Shown here: one piece after another, positions 1,872 to 32,350 of the stretch
How the letters are laid out: each line of letters opens with the position of its first letter
Numbering within the stretch: the stretch's first letter is position 1
DNA from: a virus
Direction: 5' to 3' (one strand)
Length of the DNA: 64,000 nucleotides
UHGV virus genome: UHGV-1682877
Position numbers and translations under genes: made by a program
The notes under the pieces: model-generated
What the model was told of the DNA's origin: nothing
Databases searched by the model: none
What the model saw: only the letters and a program-made list of their open reading frames with translations

Positions 1872-2099
1872 ATGAACAATAAGTATACAAATTGGGATGA
1901 ACTTTGTGATTTAATCATTCACTTTGGCGGTGAATATAATATTGATGCAGATGAATCTGATGAAAATCATTATTTTATCTGCCCTGAGTGCGGAGAGCCT
2001 ATTTATAATGGCGATTTTGCTGAGTCTGATTTTCTAAACAATAATAATCTTAGTTGCCCTGTTTGTGGAACCACTGCTGCTGATATGTTTGGAGGTTGA
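1872..2099 (+). CDS. small zinc-ribbon protein
   Basis: CPECG ... CPVCG pairs. Confidence 0.5.
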   Translation: MNNKYTNWDELCDLIIHFGGEYNIDADESDENHYFICPECGEPIYNGDFAESDFLNNNNLSCPVCGTTAADMFGG

Positions 2100-2105
2100 T
2101 TATTA

Positions 2106-2564
2106 ATGAGTGTTGCTAAATCTTATGAAAATTTTACCAAACTGTCTGAACCCTATGAAGAAAATGGCAAGATGTATATTCAGCTTCAGAATCCCAAAAC
2201 TGGTACTGTCCGCAAAGCAAGATGGTATGAAGAAACAAAAGTAAAGAAAACTAATAGCGGAAATCCTAATCTTAAAAGAGTGCGCGGTTTCAGCAAAGGC
2301 CCTATTCTTGTAGTTCGCAATATTAAAACTCATGCGGATGAACTTTGGTGTAAAGAATCCAATGCAAGATACGCAGTAGGTATTGGTTGGCATTTTGTTT
2401 CTGAAGAAGAACTTCCCACAGAAATGCCCAAAAACCTCAAATATGTACTTCTTACTTGGGATGAATTTAAAGGCAAAGATGATTTTCATTCTAAAACCTC
2501 TAAGCAACTCGCCGCAATTATTACTCGCAAACTTGAAGCTAATAAAACTATTACTTTTTGTTAA
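2106..2564 (+). CDS. hypothetical protein
   Basis: ORF track. Confidence 0.45.
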   Translation: MSVAKSYENFTKLSEPYEENGKMYIQLQNPKTGTVRKARWYEETKVKKTNSGNPNLKRVRGFSKGPILVVRNIKTHADELWCKESNARYAVGIGWHFVSEEELPTEMPKNLKYVLLTWDEFKGKDDFHSKTSKQLAAIITRKLEANKTITFC

Positions 2565-4223: not shown

Positions 4224-4262
4224 AAAGGTCAACAGATTTTGTAACACTGTTGACCTTTTAAA
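4224..4262 (+). terminator. rho-independent terminator overlapping next promoter -35
   Basis: aaaggtcaacag/ctgttgaccttt hairpin plus T-run. Confidence 0.55.
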
Positions 4263-4286
4263 AATTTTATGGTATAATATTTATAG
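4250..4286 (+). promoter_or_regulatory. repeated promoter family copy
   Basis: ttgacc-17-tataat then atttatagaaaataaaaaaggag. Confidence 0.5.
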
Positions 4287-4311: not shown

Positions 4312-5985
4312 ATGGAAGATTTTATGAACAAATTAAATCTTACTAAAGATGAAGATTTATTAGATTTTTATTTTCAAACTTACGGCGATGATGAAGCTAT
4401 GCCAGCAAGAAATTATCTTAAATTTTGGCATGAAGCTAAAAGTGAATACTTGCTTCCTCTTTTCAAGAATCAGCTTATTTACAAGAAAGAAATCAGTTTT
4501 GATGTAGATACTGAAATTCTTATTTCAAGAATTCACAGACTTTTTATTAAAGATAATAAAAATTCTAATATCTATTACAAACTTAAAAATAGATTATTTG
4601 AAATTGTTGATAATTTATTTCCTAATGTAAGTAAAGATATTCGTATAAACAAAGATGTTTCTTGTGATTCATACCTCTGGGTAAGTTCTTGTTTAAATTT
4701 TCGCACTCTAGCTTTGAATAGAACTGCAACTACTTTTCAATATAATAATTTTAAAATCCCGCAAGGTACAAAAGTTTTTAAAGCTTTTAAATCTTTTGTT
4801 AATTTTGCATTGAAAAATAAACTTATTGAACAAATTGAGTATGATGAAATAAATGATTTTATTGAATATTTGCGGATTCAACATTCTCAAGTATTTAACC
4901 AAAAAAAGATTTCCGGCAATTTATGTATCTCAATTCATCCTATGGATTATATTACCATGAGTGATAATGGTAATAATTGGGAATCTTGTATGCGCTGGGG
5001 CGATGGCGGAGGAGATTATAAAGTAGGTACTTTGGAAATGCTTAATTCTCCTTCTGTTGTAGTTTGTTATCTTGAAAGCAAAAAACCTTGGAATATCAAT
5101 GATGATTATTCCTGGAATAATAAGAAATGGCGGGAATTATTTATTGTTGATAAAAATTTTATTTGTGGTATCAAAGGTTATCCATATCCTAGTGTTTATT
5201 TGGAGACTATGTGCGCTAATTGGTTAGCAGATTTAGTTGAAGAATATTATCACAATAAGTTTGATAGAACTAATTTCCGCTATGATAAAAAAATTACATT
5301 TGAAACTATTCTAATGTATAATGATATTAATGCAAATGGAGAATGTTTTTTATACTACTCAGAGGATGCTATTGAAGCAGATGAAGAAATTGAATTTAAT
5401 TACAGTGGATATGCAAGATGTTTGAGATGCGGTGAAATTATTTCTGAAGATTGGACAGATTCAGATACTTTATCTAGTATGTTTCTTTGTCCTAATTGCG
5501 CAGGTTTGATATTTTGTGCAGATTGTGGCGATTTAATTAATCCAGAAGATTATGGCGTTGAACACAATGGAAACTGGTATTGTGAAGAATGTATGTTAGA
5601 TCATGGCTTCTTCTGTAGTGAGTGTGATGAATTTCATTGGAATGATGAAGATGAAAACACCGCAATTTATGTTGCGTACAAAGATAAAAATTCTGAACAA
5701 GTAGAATTAAGAATACTTAATTATTTATGCTCTGATTGTATTAATGAAAATCTTGAATATGGAAATATTGTTGAAGTAGAATATGAAGGCAAAAAATATT
5801 ATGTTGCCACTGTTGATTTTATTACTTCAGAATATATTAGTCAAGTTTCTCGCTATGGCGATAAAGATGGACATAAAATGATTTCTACCTTTGCTTTTTA
5901 CCATGATTTAACTCTTAATAAAACAATCTTGTACAATCCTGAATACTTTATCAATAAGGAGTATTTAAATGAAGAAAATGACTAA
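4312..5985 (+). CDS. unknown-function protein, paralog family A, with C-terminal multi-Cys zinc-ribbon array
   Basis: 557 aa; core NWESCMRWGDGGGDY; C-terminal CxxC clusters; paralog of 8092-9396. Confidence 0.6.
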   Translation: MEDFMNKLNLTKDEDLLDFYFQTYGDDEAMPARNYLKFWHEAKSEYLLPLFKNQLIYKKEISFDVDTEILISRIHRLFIKDNKNSNIYYKLKNRLFEIVDNLFPNVSKDIRINKDVSCDSYLWVSSCLNFRTLALNRTATTFQYNNFKIPQGTKVFKAFKSFVNFALKNKLIEQIEYDEINDFIEYLRIQHSQVFNQKKISGNLCISIHPMDYITMSDNGNNWESCMRWGDGGGDYKVGTLEMLNSPSVVVCYLESKKPWNINDDYSWNNKKWRELFIVDKNFICGIKGYPYPSVYLETMCANWLADLVEEYYHNKFDRTNFRYDKKITFETILMYNDINANGECFLYYSEDAIEADEEIEFNYSGYARCLRCGEIISEDWTDSDTLSSMFLCPNCAGLIFCADCGDLINPEDYGVEHNGNWYCEECMLDHGFFCSECDEFHWNDEDENTAIYVAYKDKNSEQVELRILNYLCSDCINENLEYGNIVEVEYEGKKYYVATVDFITSEYISQVSRYGDKDGHKMISTFAFYHDLTLNKTILYNPEYFINKEYLNEEND

Positions 5986-6346
5986 AAAAGATTATTATAA
6001 AAAAATTCTCCAACATTTTGGAGATAATTGCCCAGAATCAGAAATGATTAGAAATTTCCTTGAAAATGAAATTATGTTGCTTGATAGAAAAACAGAGTCT
6101 GCAAAGTTAAAAGCTATTGAAGCAAAAGAAAAAGGTGATGAATTGCGCGAACAGATTTATGACATTTTGCCCAGCTGCGAGGAAAATCCCATCCCTGTTT
6201 CTAAAATAAAAGAAATTTTAAATAATGATTTAATTACTTCTCAAAAAATTTCTGCACGTTTAACTCAGTTATTTAAATTAAACAAAATTGAGAAACAAGA
6301 AATTTCTTTTGAAGGTCAGAAAAAGACTGGATATAGAAAAATTTAA
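5969..6346 (+). CDS. hypothetical protein
   Basis: ORF track; terminator follows. Confidence 0.45.
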   Translation: MKKMTKKDYYKKILQHFGDNCPESEMIRNFLENEIMLLDRKTESAKLKAIEAKEKGDELREQIYDILPSCEENPIPVSKIKEILNNDLITSQKISARLTQLFKLNKIEKQEISFEGQKKTGYRKI

Positions 6347-6352
6347 GAAGAT

Positions 6353-6385
6353 AAAGAGGAGAATTTTTTCTCCTCTTTTTTATTA
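6353..6385 (+). terminator. rho-independent terminator
   Basis: aagaggagaa/ttctcctctt hairpin plus TTTTTT. Confidence 0.6.
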
Positions 6386-6423
6386 CCATAATTATAATAA
6401 CATATTTTTTGCTAAAAATAAAG

Positions 6424-6480
6424 TTTGAAACTTTTAGCTTGGCTTAGGTCGGGGCGGAGACGTGCGAATAAAAATAGCTT
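6424..6480 (+). promoter_or_regulatory. conserved GC-box element (copy 1 of 3)
   Basis: tttgaaacttttagcttgg...tcggggcggagacgtgcgaataaaaatag; near-identical copies at ~13916 and ~48250. Confidence 0.45.
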
Positions 6481-6514
6481 TAACAAATTTTTTAAAGGAT
6501 AAAGGAGAATAACA

Positions 6515-7291
6515 ATGTTATATAGTTTAAATACAAGACTAAAAAAATTAATGCCAGATGAAATCAAATGTCAAATAAATAGATTAGGAGACATTTTTGA
6601 TTTAATTAAAGAAAATCCAGACATTAGATGTAATATTCAATACACTAATATGGGCGAATTATCTGAAAAAAAACTGGATGAACAAATTGATTTCATTAAA
6701 GAAGTGGCAAAAGATTATACAATAGCTGTAATTAATTTCCAAGATTTGCGGAAATTAAAAGCAAAAGGCTATAATGTATATTTAGATTTGCCGGTTTCAG
6801 ATTGGGAAACTTTTAATAATTTAAAAAATATTGGCGTTTCAGATATTTACATTGACGGAGCTTTAGGATTCCAAATGGAGAAAATTGGAAAAGCAAAAGG
6901 AAAAATAAAGATTAGGGTTACTCCGCATATGTCGCCAAATGCGCAATGGTCATCTTCAGATAATGAAAATTCTTTTTATATTCGACCAGAAGATATAGAT
7001 AATTATTCTAAATATGTAGATATTTTAGACTTTAGAGATAACAGCAAAGATGCAGAAGAAACTTTATTCAATATTTATAAAAGGAAGATTTTTCCTTTTG
7101 ATTTAAATAATTTAATTAGACAACTGAATTTACCAACTAATAATATTTATATTGCAAATAGTTTTTGTTCAAACAGATTGAATTGCGGGCAAAGATGTCA
7201 GGAGCCTGATATTTCTTGTCATTTATGTAGAAATGCAATTTTAATTTCTAATAAAATGAATGAATATATTAGTTTAACGGAAAAAAATTGA
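6515..7291 (+). CDS. hypothetical protein with Cys-rich C-terminus
   Basis: ORF track. Confidence 0.45.
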   Translation: MLYSLNTRLKKLMPDEIKCQINRLGDIFDLIKENPDIRCNIQYTNMGELSEKKLDEQIDFIKEVAKDYTIAVINFQDLRKLKAKGYNVYLDLPVSDWETFNNLKNIGVSDIYIDGALGFQMEKIGKAKGKIKIRVTPHMSPNAQWSSSDNENSFYIRPEDIDNYSKYVDILDFRDNSKDAEETLFNIYKRKIFPFDLNNLIRQLNLPTNNIYIANSFCSNRLNCGQRCQEPDISCHLCRNAILISNKMNEYISLTEKN

Positions 7292-7342
7292 TTTTCTTTA
7301 AAAAATATAATATAATATTTATATAATAAAAGAAATAATAAG

Positions 7343-7377
7343 TTTTATAAAACTCACCAAAGGTGAGTTTTATAAAA
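7343..7377 (+). terminator. terminator-like hairpin (same core as 33550)
   Basis: aaactcacc aaa ggtgagttt hairpin. Confidence 0.45.
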
Positions 7378-7400
7378 CAAATAAGAAAGATGGGGATGAT

Positions 7401-8126
7401 ATGAAACTAAATAATTATGATTATAGATTTTTAAAAAAGTTGTTACAGTCTACACAGCATGAACTATTAGAATTTTTACCCAAAGCGCTTAATGCCATTT
7501 ACCATAAAGAAGATATTATTATTACCAATAATTATATTTGCGCTAAAGGTGATATCCCAGTAGCTTTAGTTGCTCATTTAGATACCGTATATCCAGAACC
7601 ACCTAAACAGATTTTTCATGATCCAGAATATAATATTATTTGGGGAACAAATGGTTTGGGTGCAGATGATAGAGCAGGCGTTTTTGCTATTTTAAATATT
7701 TTAGAATGTGGCTATAAGCCTACTGTAATTTTTTGTTGCGATGAAGAAAATGGCGGTTTAGGTGCTTATCAACTGACTAAAGATTTTTCAAAACCTTTCA
7801 CCAATTTTGAAATGCTTATTGAGCTAGACCGCCAAGGAACAAAAGATGCAGTATATTATTCATTAAATAACACTGATTTTGAAAATTATATCAATAATTA
7901 TGGATTTGAAACTGCGGTAGGTGTATTCACAGATATTTGTATTCTAGGCCCAATTTGGGATGTTCCCGCAGTTAATCTTTCTGTTGGTTATTTTAATGAA
8001 CATAGTTATGCGGAAATGCTTTATTACCCAGCTTTATTTGATACTATTGATAAGGTTTGTTTAATTTTAGAAGAAAAGAGGACAAAAGACTTTGAATTTA
8101 CAGAAATCACTGGAAGCAGCAATTAA
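7401..8126 (+). CDS. M20/M28/M42-type zinc metallopeptidase-like protein
   Basis: AHLDTV, GADDRAG, DEENGGLG motifs. Confidence 0.55.
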   Translation: MKLNNYDYRFLKKLLQSTQHELLEFLPKALNAIYHKEDIIITNNYICAKGDIPVALVAHLDTVYPEPPKQIFHDPEYNIIWGTNGLGADDRAGVFAILNILECGYKPTVIFCCDEENGGLGAYQLTKDFSKPFTNFEMLIELDRQGTKDAVYYSLNNTDFENYINNYGFETAVGVFTDICILGPIWDVPAVNLSVGYFNEHSYAEMLYYPALFDTIDKVCLILEEKRTKDFEFTEITGSSN

Positions 8127-9396
8127 ATATTCTCAAAATTATTCTTTTCCTCTTGATTGTGAAGAAATAATTACTTCTTGGGAAATTAATAAAGCTAAAT
8201 TGAACAAAGAATATTTGAACGAAAAAATTACTTTACAATTAACTGATGAACCAGTATCTATTACTCTTGATGAAACTTTTAGAAGAGATAGTTTTTTTGA
8301 ATTTATTGATAAAGTTATGAATTTGTTGGAACCATCTGAAGATGCTCCAGATAGTGAAATAGAACTATATTACCATTTTTATGATTTTCTTAGTGATAAT
8401 GTAAATAATTTTTATTCTAATATTGTTACTTCAGATTTTTTAAATATTGTAAAACGTGGAAGTAAAATTATTAAATCTTTTAAATATTTTGTTAAAGATA
8501 AACAAAAGCTCAGAAAAATCCAGGATATGGCAAGTGAATTAATTCAAACACAAAAAATTTCTGGATATTTATTTGCTTCTATTGATCCATTTGAATTTTT
8601 AACTTCTAGTGAGAATAATTGCAATTGGCGTTCTTGTCATTCATTAGATGGAGATTATCGTGCGGGAAATATTAGCTATATGAATGATCAATCTACTATT
8701 ATTGTATTTTTAGCAAATGAAGAAAAAATCAATGTAGACTGTTTACCAAAATCTATCAAAGTCTATAATAAAAAATGGAGAATGTTAATTCATATAAATC
8801 AAAATGATAATATAATTTATTATGGAAGGCAATATCCTTCTTATAATAAAAATTTATTAGATTTAGTTTATAGTAAATTATTTTGTGATAAAGGTTTTAT
8901 GCCTCCTAAAAAGGTTACTTTTGACCAAATTAATTTAAATCAGGATAATTGTATTGATTTAGACCACAATTATATGGCATTAAATAACAAAGTTTTTGAT
9001 ACTTTAGAGTTAATTGATATTCCAGAAAATTCGTTAAATTATAATGATATTGTATATTCTTCATTCTACCAAACGCAAGTCAGTATTAATAGAGAATATA
9101 AATATTATTATAGTAAAGATAAGCAAAAGACAATAGATTTATTTTTAACTAAAGTTGGTTATCCTGTTGCTTGCGCTTGCGGATGTGGCAGAAAAGTAAG
9201 TAATTCGGCAAGCTTTATTTGTGATACTTGTGCAGAAAAATATAATGCTGAAGGAAATTTATATCCAATTTGCTCTTGTTGTGGACAAAGAATAAATTTA
9301 AAAGATAAACAGAGTTATAAACAAGAAGAAGAAGGTCTTTATTGTAGTCTTTGTTGGCGAGGAATTAAGTCACTTGAACGTCAATTGAATTTTTAA
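8092..9396 (+). CDS. unknown-function protein, paralog family A member 2, with C-terminal zinc ribbons
   Basis: NCNWRSCHSLDGDY core aligns with 4312 gene; TTG start overlaps upstream gene by 35 nt, true start uncertain. Confidence 0.5.
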   Translation: MNLQKSLEAAIKYSQNYSFPLDCEEIITSWEINKAKLNKEYLNEKITLQLTDEPVSITLDETFRRDSFFEFIDKVMNLLEPSEDAPDSEIELYYHFYDFLSDNVNNFYSNIVTSDFLNIVKRGSKIIKSFKYFVKDKQKLRKIQDMASELIQTQKISGYLFASIDPFEFLTSSENNCNWRSCHSLDGDYRAGNISYMNDQSTIIVFLANEEKINVDCLPKSIKVYNKKWRMLIHINQNDNIIYYGRQYPSYNKNLLDLVYSKLFCDKGFMPPKKVTFDQINLNQDNCIDLDHNYMALNNKVFDTLELIDIPENSLNYNDIVYSSFYQTQVSINREYKYYYSKDKQKTIDLFLTKVGYPVACACGCGRKVSNSASFICDTCAEKYNAEGNLYPICSCCGQRINLKDKQSYKQEEEGLYCSLCWRGIKSLERQLNF

Positions 9397-9414
9397 TAAA
9401 AATATATTATAATA
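9386..9414 (+). promoter_or_regulatory. repeated promoter family copy
   Basis: ttgaat ... tataat atatttagaaaattaag. Confidence 0.45.
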
Positions 9415-9443
9415 TATTTAGAAAATTAAGAAAGGAATAAAAT

Positions 9444-9902
9444 ATGACTGTAAAAGAGCATGAAGTAAAAGTTTTTAAATGGCATTATACTTTGGTTAAA
9501 AGTTCAGCCATTTTTTATTTAAAAGATTTTATTAATCAAAATGTTTCAGATATTGATTATTATATTGCTGATAATAATGAAAGTAATAAAATTATTTTGA
9601 ATATTAACGGAGTAGAGTATCGTCTTTTAATTAATGATTATCTTCTTTATGACCCTTATTATAATACTTTTGTCATATTAGAAAAATCTCCAGAATCTCT
9701 TTTTAAAGAATATGAAAAAGATTATGTTATTAAATTTTTAGATAATTATATTGGTAAAAATTTTCATGATATAAATACTATTTTTAGTTGTGCAAAACAT
9801 TTTTCTTCTAAAGAAGAAGCTGAAAAAGTAGTAGATTTTTTAGTTGATAATTTTAATAGTAGCAGAGCTTGTTTTGAAATTATTGACTTAAATGAGGAAT
9901 AA
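9444..9902 (+). CDS. hypothetical protein (paralog family B)
   Basis: ORF track. Confidence 0.5.
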   Translation: MTVKEHEVKVFKWHYTLVKSSAIFYLKDFINQNVSDIDYYIADNNESNKIILNINGVEYRLLINDYLLYDPYYNTFVILEKSPESLFKEYEKDYVIKFLDNYIGKNFHDINTIFSCAKHFSSKEEAEKVVDFLVDNFNSSRACFEIIDLNEE

Positions 9903-9904
9903 TT

Positions 9905-18829: not shown

Positions 18830-20053
18830 TTGGCTTTTGATTTTAAACCTATTACAAAAATTTGTTTAAATATTACAGAAATGTGCCAGTGTGCTTGTCC
18901 TTTTTGTTTTGCAGAATATCACCCTCATAGAATATCTTACCAAGTTGCAAAGGATGCGGCAGACTGGATTATTAAAAATTCAGAATTAACAGGAGAAGTA
19001 GGATCTATCGGTTTTTTTGGCGGTGAACCGCTTCTTGAATGGGATACGATTATTGTTCCACTTACCAAGTATATTAAAGATGAGCGAGGATTAAAAGATT
19101 TTGAATTGGGTGTTACGACAAATTGTCTTTTGCTTGATGAAGAAAAGTTAAAATTTATGAAAAAATATGACTTTGGTTTACTATGCTCTATTGATGGAGC
19201 AAAAGAAACTCAAGATTATAATAGACCTTGCCGCAATGGACAAAGTAGCTTCGATATTATTGATGAAAAGATTCCTTTAATTCTAAAATATTTTCCAGAT
19301 ACTTTAATGCGTTCTACTATTATTCCCGCAACATGTGAACATTATTTTAAAAATTTAGAGTATGGATGGAATAAAGGATTCTATCATAGTTTTACAATTA
19401 TTAATCAATTTGAAGAATGGCCCGAAGATAAAAGAAAAATTCTTGAAGAGCAAGTTAGAAAATTTTCTAATTATTTAATTACATGTTTTAGAGAAGGATT
19501 GCCTTTTATGCGCCAACGAACTCTTGAACAAGCAATTAATAAAATAGTTGGAACAAATCTTCATTTTGCTCAAGGTAATGTTGAAAGAATTAAATTTGAT
19601 GATTTAGGAAGATGTTGTGGACTTGGTAGTGGATATGGTGCTATTAATTATGAAGGAGACATTTTTACTTGTCAAGAAGCAGTAAGCCGAGAAAAAGATA
19701 AAAATATTTTTTATATTGGAAATATTTATACTGGTATTGACAAAGAGCGTCAACAAAAATTATTTGATGATGTATATGCTAATGGTGGAAATGTTTATAA
19801 TTCTGTCGATAAAAATAAGTGTAAAGAATGTCCAATAGAAGCTAGCTGTAATATGAATAGTTGTTTAGTTAATAATTATTTAGAAAGACAATTATTTGAC
19901 ATTCAAGCAGATGCAATGTGTTGGTGGAATAATCTTATGGCGAAAGAAGCTCAATATATTTGTTATATACTTGGTACAGAAAATAATGAATATTTTAAAG
20001 ATTATTTTAAATGGGTAATTACCTCACAAGGAGGGACACTTAGCAATGATTGA
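18830..20053 (+). CDS. radical SAM enzyme with C-terminal SPASM-like Cys cluster
   Basis: CQCACPFC (CxxxCxxC), GGEPLL, C-terminal CKECPIEASCNMNSC; TTG start 18830 after RBS aaggagg. Confidence 0.75.
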   Translation: MAFDFKPITKICLNITEMCQCACPFCFAEYHPHRISYQVAKDAADWIIKNSELTGEVGSIGFFGGEPLLEWDTIIVPLTKYIKDERGLKDFELGVTTNCLLLDEEKLKFMKKYDFGLLCSIDGAKETQDYNRPCRNGQSSFDIIDEKIPLILKYFPDTLMRSTIIPATCEHYFKNLEYGWNKGFYHSFTIINQFEEWPEDKRKILEEQVRKFSNYLITCFREGLPFMRQRTLEQAINKIVGTNLHFAQGNVERIKFDDLGRCCGLGSGYGAINYEGDIFTCQEAVSREKDKNIFYIGNIYTGIDKERQQKLFDDVYANGGNVYNSVDKNKCKECPIEASCNMNSCLVNNYLERQLFDIQADAMCWWNNLMAKEAQYICYILGTENNEYFKDYFKWVITSQGGTLSND

Positions 20054-20795
20054 GTATATTCCTATTTCTAACAATTTAGCAGAAACTGTAGCAGAAATTG
20101 CTAATAAAAAATTTGAAGGCATGGTGCGAGAAGGAATAAATAATGGCGGAATTGTTGCTTTTGCAGATGGTTGTACTGGTTGCGAAAGTGGATGTTCTGG
20201 TTCTTGTACTGGAAGCTGTAGTAGCAGTTGTAAAGATAGTTGTAAGGATACTTGCAAAGATACCTGTAAAGGAAGTTGTAAAAACGGATGTAAAGAAGGG
20301 TGTAAAGGAAAATGTACTGGTAGCTGTCAATCTAGCTGCGAAAATGCCTGCGCACCTGGGTGTCAGTATAATTGTGAAGATGGTGGGCAAACAGTAGAAA
20401 CTTACAATTCTACAAGGCAGTATACTTTTGATGGTTGGTCTAGTACCGTAAGTCCAAACTCTACTATTAATATTTCTGCTGATGATTGGAATACCCTTGC
20501 AGGTAAAGTTAAAGGAGCAGCTCGTGCGGGTTGGGAGAAAAATGTAAGTGTGACAAGAGCATCTTCTGGAGGATGGATTACTGCTGCAATATATAATTCT
20601 ATGGTTAATGGATTAAATTCTTTGGGTAATTCTTTAGGAAGTGTTGGTTCTTCGACTTACATTGAAGCAAGTCATTTTTCTAAATTAACCAATGCATTAA
20701 ATAAAGCAACTATTCCAAAGAAAAAATGCTGCGAGTTAAAAGAATATTGTATGGAAAGTTGCAATGAAACAAGAGGCCCATTAACTGGTTCTTAA
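20046..20795 (+). CDS. Cys-repeat protein, candidate substrate of upstream radical SAM enzyme
   Basis: about 16 consecutive CxxxC units (CKDSCKDTCKDTCKGSC...), 8 nt overlap with upstream gene. Confidence 0.6.
   Translation: MIEYIPISNNLAETVAEIANKKFEGMVREGINNGGIVAFADGCTGCESGCSGSCTGSCSSSCKDSCKDTCKDTCKGSCKNGCKEGCKGKCTGSCQSSCENACAPGCQYNCEDGGQTVETYNSTRQYTFDGWSSTVSPNSTINISADDWNTLAGKVKGAARAGWEKNVSVTRASSGGWITAAIYNSMVNGLNSLGNSLGSVGSSTYIEASHFSKLTNALNKATIPKKKCCELKEYCMESCNETRGPLTGS
20170..20370 (+). repeat. 12 bp-periodic coding tandem repeat
   Basis: tgtaaagatagt-like units. Confidence 0.6.
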
Positions 20796-20811
20796 CTAGG
20801 ACACTGTTAAA

Positions 20812-20842
20812 TTGAAAATTTTAAAAAAATATTATATAATAT
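20812..20842 (+). promoter_or_regulatory. repeated promoter family copy (first of tandem pair)
   Basis: ttgaaa-17-tataat atatatagaaagttaaggaaag. Confidence 0.5.
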
Positions 20843-20897
20843 ATATAGAAAGTTAAGGAAAGAGTAATAAAAATTTCTTGAACAAAATAAATTAATT

Positions 20898-20926
20898 TGA
20901 AAAAATAAAAAATAAATGATATAATA
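20898..20926 (+). promoter_or_regulatory. repeated promoter family copy (second of tandem pair)
   Basis: gatataatatatatagaaagttaagagaggag. Confidence 0.45.
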
Positions 20927-21263: not shown

Positions 21264-21349
21264 GTGGGCGTGATGAAATAGGAAAACATATCGCACTTAA
21301 AATGCGCTGCTAATCTAGCTTGTGGGTTCGAGTCCCATCGCCCACACCA
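21264..21349 (+). tRNA. tRNA-Leu (anticodon TAA)
   Basis: acceptor gtgggcg/cgcccac, loop cttaaaa, long variable arm, CCA. Confidence 0.65.
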
Positions 21350-21350
21350 T

Positions 21351-21390
21351 CTTTAAAACTGATACTCTTTACTATTAGTTTTAAAGATAA
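21351..21390 (+). other. perfect 12 bp inverted-repeat hairpin between tRNAs
   Basis: atctttaaaact ... agttttaaagat. Confidence 0.5.
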
Positions 21391-21413
21391 CAATGAACTT
21401 GAGTTTACTGATA

Positions 21414-21491
21414 TGCGTCTGTAACTCAACTGGATAGAGTAACTGCCTTCTAAGCAGTAAGCCAGGGGTTCGAGTCCCTTCAGGCGTACCA
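21414..21491 (+). tRNA. tRNA-Arg (anticodon TCT)
   Basis: loop cttctaa, T-arm aggggttcgagtccctt, CCA. Confidence 0.65.
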
Positions 21492-21676
21492 AGCAGAACT
21501 ATAATAGGCAACAAAAGGAAATAGCTGATGTGAAAGGCATCTTGTCTTGCTGACATGACAATAAACTTTGAACGGGCGTATAATGCGTATCGTGCCTGCG
21601 GGTGTAGAGTCAGAAAAGTAGGGGAATAATTGAGGAGCAGCTATAGGTGAGGCCCCACCTCCACCTTCCTTAATAT

Positions 21677-21768
21677 GGGGCAATGGCAGAGTTTGGCTTA
21701 TTGCACTTGTCTTGAAAACAAGCAAACTAGCAATAGTTTCACTGGTTCAAATCCAGTTTGCCCCGCCA
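21677..21768 (+). tRNA. tRNA-Ser (anticodon TGA)
   Basis: acceptor ggggcaa/ttgcccc, loop cttgaaa, long variable arm, CCA. Confidence 0.65.
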
Positions 21769-21772
21769 ATAA

Positions 21773-21846
21773 GCAGGTATAGTTTAATGATAGAACTCTG
21801 GACTTCCACTCCAGCGATGCGGGTTTGATTCCCGTTACTTGCTCCA
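21773..21846 (+). tRNA. tRNA-Gly (anticodon TCC)
   Basis: loop cttccac, T-arm gcgggtttgattcccgt, CCA. Confidence 0.65.
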
Positions 21847-21909
21847 TAAAGATACTCACAGCAATTTATTTTTTATAATGGGTATAAAAAAATAAAGTAT
21901 CTTGTATTT

Positions 21910-21985
21910 GCTAACGTGGCGCAACAGGTAGCGCAGCGGCCTTGTAAACCGCAGGTTAAGAGTTCAAGTCTCTTCGTTAGCTCCA
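21910..21985 (+). tRNA. tRNA-Thr (anticodon TGT)
   Basis: acceptor gctaacg/cgttagc, loop cttgtaa, CCA. Confidence 0.65.
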
Positions 21986-21987
21986 AT

Positions 21988-22063
21988 GGTTCGCTAGTTC
22001 ATTAGGTAGAACACTTGCCTTTTAAGCAAGATGTGCTGGGTTCAAATCCCAGGCGAGCCACCA
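21988..22063 (+). tRNA. tRNA-Lys (anticodon TTT)
   Basis: loop cttttaa, T-arm ctgggttcaaatcccag, CCA. Confidence 0.7.
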
Positions 22064-22437
22064 TTAGTCTTATCATACAGACGTAAAATAAATGAGTACC
22101 CCAGATAATGCTGAACTGGGTATCCGGGTATCGGGAGAATTAGTCTGGCAACTGTTGAAGCGACGATACTGCGTGACCAGGCATAAGGGCGACCTAAGTC
22201 GTTAGCTATGGGTAAACAGGTTGATAGCCGCATAGTAAAATGTTTCCTTGCGTCATTAAAATGCAAGGCGTTATAGGAGAGACGGCGGAGCATTACTCAT
22301 CTCCACTCCTTCTGCTACGAGAAGTAGAAAATCAAGGCTTCTGAGAAATGCTAATGAGAATGGTCAACCTCTGATTAAAAAAGGACTAAAGCTAGCTTAG
22401 GTTTTAGGTTATCCTCCTTACGAGGGAAAACCTTATT
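22064..22437 (+). ncRNA. structured non-coding region, candidate novel ncRNA
   Basis: ~370 nt with no RBS-supported ORF, locally GC-richer, multiple hairpins (ccttgc/gcaagg, cttct/agaag, nested ggtt-cctc/gagg-aacc). Confidence 0.3.
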
Positions 22438-22522
22438 TGCCAGAATGTTGGAATTGGTAGACAAAGAAGTCTCAAAAACTTTCGCTTTATGCGTGCGGGT
22501 TCGAATCCCGCTTCTGGTACCA
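22438..22522 (+). tRNA. tRNA-Leu (anticodon CAA)
   Basis: acceptor gccagaa/ttctggt, loop ctcaaaa, long variable arm, T-arm gcgggttcgaatcccgc, CCA. Confidence 0.65.
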
Positions 22523-22734: not shown

Positions 22735-24258
22735 ATGGAAAATAAGATGCTTAATATTTTGAAGGAAAAGAATACTCATTCTATCACTGAGAACGGCGGT
22801 TTGACTTATAATTCTACTATGAATGGAATTATGGATTTGTTTGCTCTTGGTGGTGCTTATCGAAATCGCTCAGATGATGATTGTATTTTTCTTTTTAAGA
22901 AGGCTTTTGAGGAAGATATTTCTTATGCTTTGAAGTGTCTCTTTTATTTGCGAGACGTACGCGGTGGACAGGGAGAACGCAGATTTTTTAAGGTCGTAAC
23001 TTCTTGGTTGGCAGTTAATCACACCGAGGAAATGCGTAGAAATCTGAAGTATGTTCCTGAGTATGGTCGCTGGGATGATTTGTATGCTTTTGTTGATACT
23101 CCGCTTGAGGCAGATGCTTTTAAGACTATGTATCATCAGCTTGCTCTTGATGTTCAGTGTAAAACTCCTTCTCTTTTGGCTAAGTGGTTGAAGTCTGAAA
23201 ATACTTCTTCTGCAGAATCTCGTATGCTTGGAGCTAAAACCAGAATGGCTTTTAATATGTCTCCTAAGCAGTATCGCAAGATTCTCTCTATTCTTCGTGA
23301 AAGAATTAGAGTTTTGGAAAGACTGATGAGTGAAAACCGTTGGGATGAAATTGAATTTGATAAGATTCCTTCTAAGGCAGGTCTAAAGTATCGCAATGCT
23401 TTTGCAAAGCACGATATTGAAAGAGAAAAGTCTAATAAGGTAACTTATGAAGAGTTTGTAAAGGATTCTAATACTAAGGTCAATGCTGATACTTTGAATC
23501 CCGCAGATGTAGTTCATGCTGTTGTTTCTAAATTTCCCTATTATAGAGGAAATTTTAATGGAACTGATGTGGAGAGAGCTGCACTCAATAAGTATTGGGA
23601 TAATCTAAAGGATTATTTTAATAATGCTGTTTTTGACGGTGTTGCTGTCGTTGATACTTCTGGTTCTATGTGTGGTTTTTATGGTAGTGAGAAAACTATT
23701 GCACCTATTGATGTAGCTATTTCTCTTGGTATGTATTGTGCTGAGAAGTGTAATCCCAATTCTCCCTGGTATGGACATTATATTACTTTTTCCCGAACTG
23801 CAAGATTGGTACCTGTTGAAGGTATTGATTTTGTTGATAAGGTGCGTAGAATTTATCAAAAGAATCTTTGTGAGAATACCAACATTAAAAGTATTTTTGA
23901 TTTGCTATTGAGCAATGCTATTAAATATAATATTCCTAATGAAGAAATGCCTAAAAACATTGTAATCATTAGTGATATGGAATTTGATTATTGCGCTGGT
24001 TACTATAATAGTGATGAATACAAGTCTGAAATGGAAAAGATTATGCAAGTTTGGAACTCTCATGGTTACACTACTCCACATTTGATTTTCTGGAATGTTG
24101 ACGCTCGAAATGATAATATTCCCATGAAGATGAAGGATGGTATTACTTTTATTTCTGGTTATTCTGCGGTAACTTATGAAATGTTGATGACTGGTAAAAC
24201 TGGTTTTGATTTGGTTTTGGAAAAGTTGAACAATAAGAGATATGAGGTAATCAAGTAA
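22735..24258 (+). CDS. vWA/MIDAS-domain protein with helical N-domain (DUF2828-like; possibly TROVE/Ro60-like)
   Basis: DTSGSM MIDAS motif near residue 305; N-terminal ENGGLTY...DLFALGGAYR...RDVRGGQGERR. Confidence 0.5.
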   Translation: MENKMLNILKEKNTHSITENGGLTYNSTMNGIMDLFALGGAYRNRSDDDCIFLFKKAFEEDISYALKCLFYLRDVRGGQGERRFFKVVTSWLAVNHTEEMRRNLKYVPEYGRWDDLYAFVDTPLEADAFKTMYHQLALDVQCKTPSLLAKWLKSENTSSAESRMLGAKTRMAFNMSPKQYRKILSILRERIRVLERLMSENRWDEIEFDKIPSKAGLKYRNAFAKHDIEREKSNKVTYEEFVKDSNTKVNADTLNPADVVHAVVSKFPYYRGNFNGTDVERAALNKYWDNLKDYFNNAVFDGVAVVDTSGSMCGFYGSEKTIAPIDVAISLGMYCAEKCNPNSPWYGHYITFSRTARLVPVEGIDFVDKVRRIYQKNLCENTNIKSIFDLLLSNAIKYNIPNEEMPKNIVIISDMEFDYCAGYYNSDEYKSEMEKIMQVWNSHGYTTPHLIFWNVDARNDNIPMKMKDGITFISGYSAVTYEMLMTGKTGFDLVLEKLNNKRYEVIK

Positions 24259-24268
24259 ATAGTATTTT

Positions 24269-24297
24269 AAGAGAGGTAAAATTACCTCTCTTTTTTT
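24269..24297 (+). terminator. rho-independent terminator
   Basis: agagaggtaa/ttacctctct hairpin plus TTTTTTT. Confidence 0.65.
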
Positions 24298-24312
24298 ATA
24301 AGGAGGATTAAA

Positions 24313-25374
24313 ATGATATTATTAAATGATGATAATAGACACAGAGATTTTACAGGTGTAACTCGTTTTCACAATGCAGGTTATTTTGGAGAAAGAGTAA
24401 ATGCCGCAAGTGGAGAAACCTGGGATGTTAATAGATATAATCCAGATAATTTAGTAAGAAATTGCTTAAAGGATAAACAATTTTCAGATGAACATCCAAT
24501 AAATACTGCGGCAACATTTTTTCAAGTAGCTCCAAAAGCTCATCTATTTATGCTTTATTCCATTGATGGCAGTTATGGTAGTGGAGATAATTATAACTCT
24601 AAATTTTTTAATGAATCAGTAGAAATTATTGAAAAATATAATATTACTAATATGTTTACCTCTTTAAATTGTAGTAGACATACTAAATTTTTTGAAGATT
24701 TAAAAAATTGGTATATTAAACATCCTAGTTTTAAACCCTTTTGGTGCGCAGGAAATGATTCTTCTAAAAAATATAATCCAATTATGGAAATTGAAGAAGT
24801 AATTGGTGTAGCCGCTTATACTTTAATGGTAAATGGTACAGTAAATCCTGCTTATTATTCTAGTATTAGTAGTTATGTAGACTTTTCTGCACCTAGTATG
24901 ATTTATTTAAATCCGCAAGCTACAAAACCAGACGCAGCAACTTATTCCAATTCTGGTACTTCTTTTTCTACACCTTGGTTATGTGGAATGAGCTGTTTAG
25001 TAGATGATTTCTTTATTGATAAAAAAGGATTACCTCTAACAAGAGAAGGAATGATTCAATTCTTTAAAGATAATTGTAAAGATATAGGCGATAAGGGTAT
25101 TGATCCAAAAACAGGATTTGGCGCAGTAATTTTACCTGAACCAAATTCTATTGATATTGATAAATATTATAATATTGGGAGGACAAATATGAGTACATTA
25201 GATAAATTTAAAGATAAAAATGATATTTCTAATTGGGCTAAAGCAAGTATTGAATGGGCTGTTAATACAGGTATTCTTCAAGGTGACGATAAAGGCTATC
25301 TTTTACCCAAAGCTTACCTAACTAGAGAGCAAATGGCAGTTATGTTAGAGCGTTTTAAAAATATTATAAAATAA
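24313..25374 (+). CDS. subtilisin-like serine protease with C-terminal SLH-like wall-binding domain
   Basis: SNSGTSFSTPW catalytic Ser motif; C-terminal WAVNTGILQGDDKGYLLP...LTREQMAVML. Confidence 0.6.
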   Translation: MILLNDDNRHRDFTGVTRFHNAGYFGERVNAASGETWDVNRYNPDNLVRNCLKDKQFSDEHPINTAATFFQVAPKAHLFMLYSIDGSYGSGDNYNSKFFNESVEIIEKYNITNMFTSLNCSRHTKFFEDLKNWYIKHPSFKPFWCAGNDSSKKYNPIMEIEEVIGVAAYTLMVNGTVNPAYYSSISSYVDFSAPSMIYLNPQATKPDAATYSNSGTSFSTPWLCGMSCLVDDFFIDKKGLPLTREGMIQFFKDNCKDIGDKGIDPKTGFGAVILPEPNSIDIDKYYNIGRTNMSTLDKFKDKNDISNWAKASIEWAVNTGILQGDDKGYLLPKAYLTREQMAVMLERFKNIIK

Positions 25375-25380
25375 TTTTAA

Positions 25381-25410
25381 GGGAGTCAAAATGACTCCCT
25401 TTTTATTTTT
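25381..25410 (+). terminator. rho-independent terminator
   Basis: gggagtca/tgactccc hairpin plus T-run. Confidence 0.65.
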
Positions 25411-25479
25411 TTAAAAAAATATTATATAATATATATAGAAAGTTAAGGAATAAATAAATAAGAAAGAAGTTGAAATTTT

Positions 25480-25749
25480 ATGATTTATAGAAAAAGCAAA
25501 TACAGTAAAGATCAGACTGCAATTTGGCAAGGTGAAACTGCGGTTATTCTTGCTCAATCAGCAGAAGCTATGACAATAGATGAAATTAAAAACAATAGTA
25601 TTCAATTAACAGGTGTTTCTACTCAAAAAATGGCTAGGATTCTTGGGCATTTGATTGAAATGGGTATGGTAACAAAAGCAAAAAGCAAAAGTGGAAAAAT
25701 GGTCTATAAATCTTTGGCAGTAATGGAAATGCAAGGTTATGAAATTTAA
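25480..25749 (+). CDS. hypothetical protein
   Basis: ORF track. Confidence 0.4.
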   Translation: MIYRKSKYSKDQTAIWQGETAVILAQSAEAMTIDEIKNNSIQLTGVSTQKMARILGHLIEMGMVTKAKSKSGKMVYKSLAVMEMQGYEI

Positions 25750-25768
25750 ATAAAGGAGTTTGATATTT

Positions 25769-27037
25769 ATGGCATACTATGGTTTAGTAACTAAAATTGA
25801 AAATGTAAGAAAAGACCCTAATTCTGATAGACTCTATTTGGCTGATTGTTTTAGAGAAGGAGTTATTGTAGGCCCTAATATGAAGGAAAGCGAGTTGGTT
25901 CTTTATCTTCCTACTGATGGAGCTATTGAGCGTTGGTTTGGTGATGAGTTTAAACTTTTCCGCAAGAATTTAGATGGTACCGCGCAAGGTGGTTATTTGG
26001 AAAATAATGCTCATATTAGAGCAATTAAGCTAAGAGGTAATGAATCTTCTGGTATTGTTATTTCTTATTCTACTATTGTTGAGCATTTTGGTGAGCAAAA
26101 TTGGAAAGATGGCGATCAGGTCACTGAAATTAATAATAAGCTATTTTGTTATAAATATATTCCTAAACCTTCGGCTATTCCTCGCACTACTCCTAAAACT
26201 TCTTATAAAGGTCGTAAAGCAGCTGGAATTAAGTATCCTGATTTTGCCATGCATATTGATACTGCCCAATTAGCTTACAATCTTGGAATTTTTAGACCTG
26301 GAGATAAAATTAATCTAACCCTTAAAATGCATGGAACTAGCCAGCGTAGTGCATATACTTGGGCAGAATATCCTATGTCTTGGTTTAGAAAGCTATTTCA
26401 CATGAAACCTAAGAGAAAGTTGCAGTATGTTTTAGGTACTCGTAGAACTGTTGTTACTACTGATGGGGTAGGTTATTATGGTAATGACAAATTTAGATTT
26501 AGTCACCATGAAGCTTTAAAACCTTATCTCGATGAAGGTATGGAAGTTTTTTATGAAGTAGTTGGTTGGTATGGAGCAAAAGAAAATGAAACTATTATGC
26601 CAATTGTAGATAATAGTAAAATTAATGACAAGAAATTTATGAAAAAGTTTGGTAAGTATACTACTTTTTCTTATGGTTGTACTCCTGGTCATTCTGCAAT
26701 GTGGATTTATAGAATTACTTCTCATAATGGTGAATATGAATATTCTCCAGAGGAAATTACTACTTGGTGTAATGAATATGGTTTTAATCGTGTTCCTATT
26801 ATTGAGGATTTTGAATTTACTACTGTTGATGACTTGCTCGCTAAAATTGACAAATATTTTGAAGATATTGTTGACCCAGTTGGTTTAACTCATGTTAAAG
26901 AAGGTGTAGTAGTTAGAATTGCTAATAGACGTACTTTTACTGCATTAAAACAAAAAACCTGGGAGTTTAAAGTCCTTGAAGGTCTAGTTAAAGATACTGA
27001 AACCCAGCCCGATATGGAAGAAGCACAGGAGGTTTAA
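25769..27037 (+). CDS. Rnl2-family RNA ligase with N-terminal tRNA-binding OB domain
   Basis: N-terminal LVTKIENVRKDPNSDRLYLADCF (tRNA-binding fold); KMHGTS motif I like T4 Rnl2 KIHGTN; EGVVVR motif IV; KQK motif V. Confidence 0.6.
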   Translation: MAYYGLVTKIENVRKDPNSDRLYLADCFREGVIVGPNMKESELVLYLPTDGAIERWFGDEFKLFRKNLDGTAQGGYLENNAHIRAIKLRGNESSGIVISYSTIVEHFGEQNWKDGDQVTEINNKLFCYKYIPKPSAIPRTTPKTSYKGRKAAGIKYPDFAMHIDTAQLAYNLGIFRPGDKINLTLKMHGTSQRSAYTWAEYPMSWFRKLFHMKPKRKLQYVLGTRRTVVTTDGVGYYGNDKFRFSHHEALKPYLDEGMEVFYEVVGWYGAKENETIMPIVDNSKINDKKFMKKFGKYTTFSYGCTPGHSAMWIYRITSHNGEYEYSPEEITTWCNEYGFNRVPIIEDFEFTTVDDLLAKIDKYFEDIVDPVGLTHVKEGVVVRIANRRTFTALKQKTWEFKVLEGLVKDTETQPDMEEAQEV

Positions 27038-31078: not shown

Positions 31079-32350
31079 TTGAACAATAGGAGAGTGGAAA
31101 TTATTATTAAATTCTACGATACTTGTAGTCTTTTATTAGCCGGGGAATCAGCTTTTGAAGATAATGAAAAATTTATCATTTCTTCTATTACTTTAAAAGA
31201 ATTAGAAAGAATTAAAACCGCGGCAAATAAAGATTCTGATATAAAATATTCCGCAAGACTTTTGCTTCATTTATTTGAAAAATATCCAAATAATTATTCT
31301 GTTAAAATTCATCAAATAAATTATGAATACATTTTAGATAAAATGAATTTTGATATTAATGATGATGCTAGAATTTTGTCTGATGCTTGGAATGAATTTG
31401 AAACAAATAAATGTTTAGAATTTATAACTAATGATTTAAGTTTAAAACATATTGCTTTATGTTTGTTTCCTAAAGAAAATGTTTCTTCTGTTGAAGAAAA
31501 TTTAGATACTTATAGTGGACTTGCAGAAATTACTGCTAGTGAAGAATTAATTTCTGAATTTTATGAAAATCCTAACTATAATCATTTTAATCTTAAAAAA
31601 GGAGAATATTTACTTCTAAAAAATCCTGATAATTTTGATGAACTTATAGATGTGCGGGTTTGGACAGGAGAGACTTATCGTTATTTAAAATTTCCTACTT
31701 TTGATTCTACCTGGTTTGGAAAAGTACAACCATATCAAGGAGATATATATCAAAAATGTGCTTTTGATAGTTTAGCTAATAATAAAATTACTTTACTACA
31801 AGGCCCAGCAGGAGTAGGAAAATCTTACATTTCTTTAGCTTTTTTAATGTATATGTTAGAAAAAAATAGAATAGATAAAATTATAATCTTTTGTAATACA
31901 GTGGCAACTATTAATTCCGCTAAATTAGGGTTTTACCCAGGTACAAAAGACGATAAATTACTTGACTCGCAAATTGGTAATATGCTTTCTGCCAAATTAG
32001 GCGGTAAAGAAGGTGTTCTTCGTATGATGGAAGAAGATAAATTAGTTTTATTGCCTTTTAGCGATATTAGAGGTTATGATACTAGCGGAATGAACGCAGG
32101 TATTTATATAACAGAAGCACAAAATTTAGACAGAACTTTAATTAAATTAGCTCTTCAACGTATTGGTGAAGATTGTATTTGTATTATTGATGGTGACGCT
32201 AAAACACAAGTTGACTCATTAGCTTATTCTGGTAATAATAATGGTATGAGAAGAATGTCTAAAATTTTTAGAGGTTCTGATATTTATGGAGAAGTAACTT
32301 TAAATAATATTCATAGATCTAAAATAGCAGAACTTGCAGAATTAATTTAA
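31079..32350 (+). CDS. phoH: PhoH-like ATPase with N-terminal PIN domain
   Basis: Walker A LLQGPAGVGKSY; PIN-like N-terminus. Confidence 0.75.
   Translation: MNNRRVEIIIKFYDTCSLLLAGESAFEDNEKFIISSITLKELERIKTAANKDSDIKYSARLLLHLFEKYPNNYSVKIHQINYEYILDKMNFDINDDARILSDAWNEFETNKCLEFITNDLSLKHIALCLFPKENVSSVEENLDTYSGLAEITASEELISEFYENPNYNHFNLKKGEYLLLKNPDNFDELIDVRVWTGETYRYLKFPTFDSTWFGKVQPYQGDIYQKCAFDSLANNKITLLQGPAGVGKSYISLAFLMYMLEKNRIDKIIIFCNTVATINSAKLGFYPGTKDDKLLDSQIGNMLSAKLGGKEGVLRMMEEDKLVLLPFSDIRGYDTSGMNAGIYITEAQNLDRTLIKLALQRIGEDCICIIDGDAKTQVDSLAYSGNNNGMRRMSKIFRGSDIYGEVTLNNIHRSKIAELAELI

Follow-up and report, generated by a model that had tools for sequence, protein, structure and literature searches.

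A DNA stretch of 64,000 nucleotides (nt) from the virus genome UHGV-1682877, which we refer to as the window, encodes between positions 4312 and 9396 two large proteins, here termed A and B, together with a metallopeptidase-like protein and two orphan-family proteins whose genes lie between them. We find that A and B belong to a very large family of hitherto unnamed proteins, which combine a core of predicted GNAT-like topology with C-terminal zinc ribbons and are encoded next to an apparently intact dizinc peptidase in three kinds of element. We tentatively propose that the two components form a module that modifies proteins or peptides. The features of these genes are as follows:

4312..5985, plus strand: gene A, 557 amino acids (aa), ATG start, an A-type family member with an N-terminal helical region (residues 1-135), an alpha/beta core (about 136-350) and, behind three Cys4 ribbons (370-475), a tail modelled with low confidence
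4717..5361, plus strand: conserved core of A (residues 136-350), its strands and helices predicted in a GNAT-like order
4930..5019, plus strand: motif block S207-Y236 inside the core of A
5419..5736, plus strand: three tandem Cys4 zinc ribbons of A, from the CxxC pattern, the first two LIM-like
7401..8126, plus strand: gene for a dizinc metallopeptidase-like protein of M28/M42/M20 type, 241 aa, which has only the catalytic domain
8092..9396, plus strand: gene B, 434 aa, TTG start, B-type family member
8575..8658, plus strand: core motif of B
9172..9354, plus strand: two Cys4 zinc ribbons of B, from the CxxC pattern

A BLASTP comparison of A with B under compositional adjustment gave an E-value of 2e-18 (26% identity over 339 columns); their similarity is therefore not compositional and lies far beyond chance. 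The first-pass annotation of this DNA had described the two as paralogs that share a central block. The paralogy is borne out and the peptides quoted for it occur in both open reading frames (ORFs), but the likeness is not confined to the centre: in a mixed alignment of 54 sequences the homology of the A-type and B-type proteins extends from end to end and takes in a W..K motif at the N-terminus. The same alignment reveals 14 positions that are invariant in both subfamilies, namely K43, S192, S207, P210, S217, W223, C226, G239, K271, W273, R274, Y290, P291 and D338 (A numbering). The 'NW-x-SC' core that had been noted in the two sequences generalizes to W-x-S-C within longer subfamily-specific motifs, which read S-I-H-P-[LM]-D-Y-x-T-M-S-D-N-x3-W-x-S-C-M-x-W in the A-types and S-V-H-P-L-D-F-L-S-x-S-E-N-x2-N-W-R-S-C-H-S-L-D-G-D-Y-R-A-G in the B-types, while the motif set of the family core as a whole is S..S-x-[HD]-P-x-D...S-x-N...W-x-S-C...G-x-Y-R-x-G...K-K-W-R...Y-P...Y-N-D.

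Among clusters built at 90% identity, word-indexed searches recovered 193 for A and 134 for B, all of them unnamed. A profile search of 1.84 billion representatives retrieved 9,493 clusters at E<=1e-3, some of the weakest of which were perhaps drawn in by the zinc ribbons; the same exhaustive search gave 4,821 clusters at 50% identity with E<=1e-10 and 2,955 with E<=1e-30. The family is thus already in the databases, but solely as unnamed proteins. Apart from sub-threshold LIM matches, no Pfam family was recovered with A, B or the 64 members scanned; neither A nor B matched a model in NCBIfam or PADLOC, or a PDB chain in sequence searches beyond the Cys-rich tail, and a Foldseek search of PDB with the full structural model gave no match at E<=0.001. 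A and B themselves do not match the PHROG phrog_18912 ('unknown function') at E<=0.01, which is recovered by their homologs P0009 (1e-18) and P0198 (1.6e-15) and probably derives from Enterococcus EF1-like phages. No paper describing the family was found in the literature. The earlier remark that the core belongs to no familiar family therefore stands, the only profile reached by its homologs being phrog_18912. Structure prediction was confident, with a pLDDT of 87 over the entire protein and of 91.6 within the core. Proteins of the GNAT superfamily follow the order beta1-alpha1-alpha2-beta2-beta3-beta4-alpha3-beta5-alpha4-beta6 and bind the pyrophosphate of acyl-coenzyme A (acyl-CoA) through motif A, Q/R-x-x-G-x-G/A, in the loop between beta4 and alpha3.

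At the C-terminus of A, six CxxC pairs make up three Cys4 sites (C370/373/393/396, C402/405/424/427 and C435/438/472/475) with the spacing C-x2-C-x19-C-x2-C-x5-C-x2-C-x18-C-x2-C-x7-C-x2-C-x33-C-x2-C, and B ends in two (C361-C380 and C394-C421), in keeping with the first description of both proteins as ending in several such pairs. The family profile matched LIM chains in PDB with E-values from 6.6e-7 (CRP2) to 1e-3, a score that the Cys spacing may drive; the Pfam LIM model matched 2 of 64 members below its cut-off (E>=0.005), and LMO2 was weakly listed by Foldseek. The zinc arrays are strongly acidic, at -10 to -16 net charges per 100 aa; over the first two ribbons the value is -15.8 in the A-types and -11.3 in the B-types. 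A of the window carries a net charge of -27 from its first ribbon to the C-terminus, and B of the window, at +2, is an exception. This acidity speaks against binding of nucleic acids and in favour of a part in docking to proteins or in mimicking nucleic acids. Conservation within the family proteins is lowest in the arrays, and because the number of ribbons varies and some members (the 399-aa member of Enterococcus phage EF1, P0041 and P0100) have none, they are best seen as accessory to the core.

The peptidase-like protein encoded just upstream of B scores 25.0 bits with Pfam M28 (PF04389), whose cut-off is 21.3, and matches phrog_34186 with an E-value of 1e-54, along with weak NCBIfam matches to ArgE, PepT and LysK. 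Its residues H59, D61, D89, D90, E115, E116, D143 and H201 are invariant in 48 sequences that include those from EF1 and from a plasmid described below; since these comprise the full dizinc ligand set and the catalytic glutamate, the peptidase is very probably active. The TTG start of B (8092) sits 35 nt inside this gene, as had been suspected, and is preceded at a distance of 8 nt by the Shine-Dalgarno sequence AAGAGGA. The homolog of B in the related locus L004 has an ATG (MNL...) at the equivalent codon (MNLTEKLNAAIKYSQNYPF vs MNLQKSLEAAIKYSQNYSF) and the identical 35-nt overlap with its peptidase gene, and BLASTP alignments of B with distant homologs start at residue 1. Going by predicted B starts, the genes overlap at 52 of the 62 related peptidase/B junctions, most of the others lying within a few nt of the peptidase stop; a Shine-Dalgarno motif is found at 58 of these 62 starts, of which 55 are ATG, six TTG and one GTG. 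From the Shine-Dalgarno sequence, the ATG in L004 and the overlapping junctions we conclude that the TTG start is genuine, and the geometry of the junction is that of translational coupling. Of the two explanations initially offered for this unusual start, coupling fits these observations, while a misplaced start does not.

To place A and B in their genomic setting, the remaining features around them are listed here:

2106..2564, plus strand: w152a, upstream member of the block, with homology across related loci
4224..4258, plus strand: 12-bp hairpin with a T-rich run (fold -15.8 kcal/mol, z -4.3), terminator-like for the upstream unit
4250..4278, plus strand: sigma-70-type promoter-like site, TTGACC, 17 nt, TGgTATAAT, 11/12 matches with extended -10
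5969..6346, plus strand: w125, 125-aa orphan-family gene, overlapping the end of A by 17 nt
6353..6378, plus strand: intrinsic-terminator-like hairpin with T-run after w125 (fold -15.4 kcal/mol, z -4.9)
6515..7291, plus strand: w258, 258-aa orphan-family gene with invariant R-P-E-D and C-x3-C-x6-C-x2-C
7342..7378, plus strand: perfect 17-bp hairpin in the gap between w258 and the peptidase gene, GTTTTATAAAACTCACC/GGTGAGTTTTATAAAAC (-21.7 kcal/mol, z -10.2)
10243..10551, plus strand: w102, orphan gene of about 100 aa, with homology across related loci

With local hidden Markov models (HMMs) we took a census of 107 loci that contain a family member, in which most absences of a gene fall at contig ends. 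Homologs of w125 are present in 96 of them, always directly downstream of an A-type gene, those of the peptidase and of w258 in 93 each, of w152a in 78 and of w102 in 72; at least two family copies occur in 82 loci and at least three in 17. Across these loci the order is always w152a ... A-w125-w258-peptidase-B-w102 on one strand, and it is kept in about 100 of them though A is just about 30% identical between loci. Typing of the family genes with A-only and B-only HMMs placed an A-type upstream of the peptidase 92 times and a B-type downstream of it 70 times, with one exception. This positional fixity implies that the duplication predates the diversification of the phage clade. A and B are thus true paralogs from an ancient duplication, and one part of the first-pass annotation, which saw in them duplicated, diverging early genes of the kind typical of host takeover or anti-defence, needs revision: the copies have held their places throughout a family-level phage clade, the core is under strong purifying conservation, and the pair is not a fast-evolving product of an arms race.

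Even the distant contig L001, whose A is 34% identical, has counterparts of all five genes (E-values of 9e-14 for the small protein, 2e-19 for w258, 3e-66 for the peptidase and 7e-48 for B). Three further loci, L002, L003 and L004, show the same arrangement with variations: L002 has three tandem A-type genes (8197..13492), and in the 182-kb relative L003 (14872..20350) the block lacks B and is followed by three radical-SAM genes, one of them with a SPASM domain, and a Hint-domain gene. In most relatives w102 lies directly 3' of the B-type gene, and in the window two extra small ORFs stand between them. Members of the w258 family are about 255 aa long and also share an invariant Tyr; their C-terminal Cys cluster could, by its pattern, bind Zn or an Fe-S cluster. 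w258, w125 and w102 have no Pfam or PDB match and no informative PHROG match. A candidate assignment of w258 as a U32-like TIM-barrel or Fe-S enzyme, suggested by U32 motifs, found no support in Pfam or PDB and was dropped. Longer homologs of w152a (about 240 aa) match phrog_2319 and phrog_30451, both of unknown function. Just upstream of w152a, at 1872..2099, the window also encodes a stand-alone double-CxxC zinc-ribbon miniprotein of 75 aa, which matches the family HMM weakly (E=9e-5), apparently via the ribbon only.

The family-peptidase pair is found in three unrelated genomic backgrounds, one of which is the main phage clade itself. Searches of 50,697 phage records with A by megablast and tblastn returned no match, and EF1-like phages were retrieved only when a profile-central B-type member was used as the query. 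Among metagenomic sequences, the 137.7-kb IMG/VR contig L028 encodes an A that is 91% identical; related contigs are mostly 100-200 kb long, and their metagenome-assembled genome bins point to Clostridia (Lachnospiraceae, Oscillospiraceae and Acutalibacteraceae). The only cultured phages with the family are the Enterococcus phages EF1, EF5, H1 and VRE9_1-4. A study of the gut phage phAss-1 proposes a family-level clade of metagenomic phages, perhaps including EF1, and does not mention A/B-type proteins (PMC10607447). EF1 itself (L006, 5762..12185) has three paralogs of 623, 399 and 335 aa, in the order 623-aa member, 399-aa member, a 368-aa M28-like gene that overlaps the preceding one by 13 nt, and 335-aa member. 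The EF1 accessions concerned are ASZ76705, ASZ76701, ASZ76700 and ASZ76699. The third background is pMM35_02 of Vescimonas fastidiosa (L005, NZ_AP023417.1, 142 kb), the one record with the family in the plasmid database, where the gene for a 421-aa member has a 347-aa M28-like gene directly behind it and, as neighbours, genes with the annotations PcfJ, AcrIIA9-family, YodL, LigA and RecD-like; a 4.4-kb faecal fragment repeats this context. Because pMM35_02 also encodes VirD4-like and PrgI-family proteins of a type IV secretion system (T4SS), sortase-dependent pilins and a large number of metabolic functions, we class it not as a phage but as a conjugative plasmid or chromid. MOB-suite types it as 'non-mobilizable' despite its T4SS genes. 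The recurrence of the family-peptidase pair in these three backgrounds is the strongest functional clue available.

The promoter-like site lies 34 nt upstream of the start of A; it is a consensus match only, and 105 such sites were found in this AT-rich DNA against 84 expected. Its -35 box, TTGACC, falls within the descending arm of the hairpin at 4224..4258, so that upstream termination and the next initiation would use the same DNA. The hairpin at 7342..7378 lacks a T-run and so does not qualify as a canonical terminator; processing or regulation might take place there. From these signals the block in the window probably comprises three units, A-w125, w258 and peptidase-B. In relatives, single in-frame stops interrupt family genes, most of them B-type, as well as w258 genes, and 17 of these 18 stops are TAG (loci L002, L003, L007, L012, L014, L033, L036, L040, L050, L076, L092, L097, L100-L102 and L105). 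TAG-to-Gln recoding has been reported for the phAss-1 phage group, where recoded codons are described as typical of late genes (PMC10607447). The TAG stops fit such amber-to-Gln recoding, which suggests that translation of the genes in question has to await a suppressor tRNA. The window has no in-frame TAG and no CTA suppressor tRNA, and TAG ends one of its 55 long ORFs.

The window at large is 24-38% G+C, with nearly all genes on one strand and 17 tRNA genes in two arrays (10813..13823 and 21264..22522). It encodes topoisomerase II, a DnaB-like helicase, RecJ, NrdD, a radical-SAM enzyme (18794..20053), RNA and DNA ligases, a PIN-PhoH protein and a DNA polymerase of 1,279 aa that is 39% identical to YorL of SPbeta-like Bacillus phages. 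The A/B block is distant from any structural genes; a host-type promoter precedes it, and the tRNA and replication genes lie downstream. Several observations concern this wider region. One tRNA, at 13040..13112, was not assigned by ARAGORN ('tRNA-???', four-base anticodon tgaa), and within the same array a 215-aa ORF (12359..13006) has near its start SYIYRIINNINDKVYIGKT, which, from the translation only, looks like a GIY-YIG homing-endonuclease motif. Genes beside the tRNA arrays (22735..27037 and 31079..32350) possibly form an RNA-repair or tRNA-maintenance set; they encode a 507-aa protein matching phrog_850 ('RNA-binding protein'), one with an RNA-ligase domain and the PIN-PhoH protein. The ORF at 14388..15620 has a weak, below-cut-off Mtd_N match (E=3e-4), and L004 has clear Mtd_N genes at 18832..20901, which hints at targets of diversity-generating retroelements in this phage group. 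At 24313..25374 lies an S8 peptidase with an SLH domain.

Taken together, we propose that A/B and the peptidase form a GNAT-like transferase/aminopeptidase module that acts on proteins or peptides when the element establishes itself, a reading to which we assign a probability of about 0.35. We infer catalysis by the core, its chemistry, its substrate and its timing from the conserved polar residues, their GNAT-like geography and the coupling to an intact exopeptidase/deacylase, and likewise from the acidic LIM-like tails and the occurrence of the family in elements that must establish themselves in new cells. On this proposal the core would be a transferase of the acyl- or aminoacyl-transfer kind, which the acidic zinc-ribbon array may dock onto a protein target or partner. 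Along with the coupled M28/M42-type exopeptidase/deacylase, the module would edit proteins or peptides, most economically at their N-termini, with the aminopeptidase trimming or de-acylating and the GNAT-like subunits adding a group; it would be expressed when the element enters a new cell, be it by phage infection or by plasmid transfer. There is precedent on both sides: Mom of phage Mu has a GNAT fold that does not use CoA, works with Gly-tRNA and has a Ser/Arg/Asp/Tyr site (PMC13219725), while among the early effectors of phages and of conjugative elements both GNATs and peptidases turn up repeatedly (PMC5512222).

A number of observations weigh against this proposal. The family lacks GNAT motif A, its consensus after beta4 being I-K-G-Y-P-Y-x-N in the A-types and R-Q-Y-P-F in the B-types; A, B and the 64 members gave no Pfam Acetyltransf or FemAB match, and no GNAT chain was recovered when PDB was searched with the family profile at E<=10. 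The clustering of the invariant residues in one putative pocket is read from their secondary-structure positions only. The terminator and the strong hairpin interrupt the block of the window, which therefore does not make up one operon, and the TAG codons found in frame within the B-type genes of recoded relatives hint that expression comes after the immediate-early phase. Some loci have no B (L003, L034, L068, L075, L077 and L079) or no peptidase (L024 and L025). Finally, synteny within one phage clade may partly reflect common ancestry and not function, and outside the main phage clade just two independent contexts support the family-peptidase pair.

The best-surviving alternative, which we nonetheless consider rather unlikely, is that these proteins are stoichiometric binders or inhibitors, whose core is a pseudo-enzyme or binds a ligand, and whose acidic arrays, as surfaces that contact proteins or mimic nucleic acids, sequester a DNA- or RNA-binding protein of the host such as a defence or nucleoid factor, the peptidase being an independent or accessory activity. 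The strongly negative charge that both the arrays and the complete proteins carry, the LIM-like double zinc fingers and the lack of a recognisable cofactor-binding motif would all suit such a role, as would the proximity of the plasmid member to the AcrIIA9-family, PcfJ and YodL genes and a variation in copy number typical of counter-defence genes (the tandem A-types of L002, the 17 loci with at least three copies and the paralogs of EF1). Set against this is the persistence of the 14 invariant, mostly polar residues (three Ser, one Cys, two Lys, one Arg, one Tyr, one Asp and two Trp among them), which are kept between paralogs of about 25% identity and across thousands of clusters, a pattern that typifies catalysis or the specific binding of a ligand. 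The zinc arrays, by comparison, vary in number and are absent from EF1's 399-aa member, P0041 and P0100.

Less likely again is a role in modifying nucleic acids, in which the GNAT-like core would acylate or aminoacylate phage DNA or tRNA in the manner of Mom, TmcA and Elp3, while w258, with its four-Cys motif, and the peptidase/deacylase would process the adduct in a hypermodification pathway; the acidity of the proteins weakens this idea. A lineage-specific housekeeping module without host targets (for instance a factor in maturation or assembly, or one that controls the switch from early to late), with synteny merely reflecting the conserved genome architecture of the clade, would accord with the near-universal presence and fixed order of the genes in a family-level clade, with an ancient paralogy that shows no signs of rapid turnover and with TAG as 17 of the 18 in-frame stops in B-type and w258 genes of recoded relatives, recoded codons being described as typical of late genes (PMC10607447), but we deem it improbable given that the pair is also found in a conjugative plasmid that has no virion and that the block, preceded by a host-type promoter, sits apart from the structural genes and ahead of those for tRNAs and replication.

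Returning to the transferase/aminopeptidase proposal, it can be taken one step further in a version that we offer as a long shot. Here A and B would represent a new, deeply diverged GNAT-like branch with non-canonical use of acyl-CoA, which together with the peptidase edits protein N-termini and so re-tags host or defence proteins. The peptidase would expose an N-terminus, to which the two paralogs, differing in specificity, would attach a group, possibly an amino acid from the phage's own tRNAs, and the host or defence proteins thus marked might be inactivated or degraded as the phage or plasmid enters.

Whichever of these roles applies, a family with thousands of 50%-identity clusters, confident structural models and enzyme-like invariants, yet with no curated model or known function, is abundant in the large phages of gut Clostridia and Enterococcus. 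Its coupling to an intact dizinc peptidase in three kinds of element makes it a good target in the search for new activities of mobile elements. Should the core indeed have transferase activity, the means by which phages and plasmids establish themselves would be extended by a new chemistry or target, and this would explain a conserved block of five to seven genes in a proposed new phage family. The system is open to testing, since EF1 and its relatives, with three paralogs and the peptidase, are in culture.

In terms of known systems, the one profile that family members (P0009 and P0198) match, phrog_18912, differs in being a label without annotation. PcfJ (PF14284), an uncharacterised family of mobile elements encoded two genes from the plasmid member, bears a superficial resemblance in its L-x-H-C-V...Y motif, behind which beta strands follow. 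A relationship to it was considered and rejected: hhalign gave a probability of 0.1% (a weak test, as the PcfJ alignment has an effective sequence number, Neff, of 2.7), the HMMER alignment was confined to a zinc ribbon, and neither A nor B matched the Pfam PcfJ model; we treat the two families as not related. LIM domains are double zinc fingers that mediate protein-protein contacts in eukaryotes and have the ligand pattern C-x2-C-x16-23-H-x2-C-x2-C-x2-C-x16-21-C-x2-(C/H/D), which A does not follow. The family arrays resemble those of CRP1/CRP2, LMO2 and PINCH in their two consecutive zinc sites with loops of 16-20 residues, and a comparable role in protein-protein docking is plausible. They differ in that their ligands are all Cys (C4-C4-C4, as against C2HC-C4 in LIM), in that the linker has five residues and not two, in having up to three sites in a row, and in being extremely acidic and of bacterial or phage origin, whereas LIM domains are eukaryotic. 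With the M28/M42/M20 aminopeptidases and deacylases the peptidase shares the metal and catalytic set of H-x-D, D-D, E-E, D and H; unlike them it is short, forms a phage clade of its own (phrog_34186) and is coupled to an orphan family. For the core, the nearest known fold is that of the GNAT superfamily, including its non-CoA branches FemX/FemA, the L/F- and R-transferases (ATE1) and Mom of phage Mu, whose topology it may follow; it has a motif set of its own and lacks motif A. At the fold level the family would be a deeply diverged GNAT-like variant in which motif set, architecture and conserved partnership are all new.

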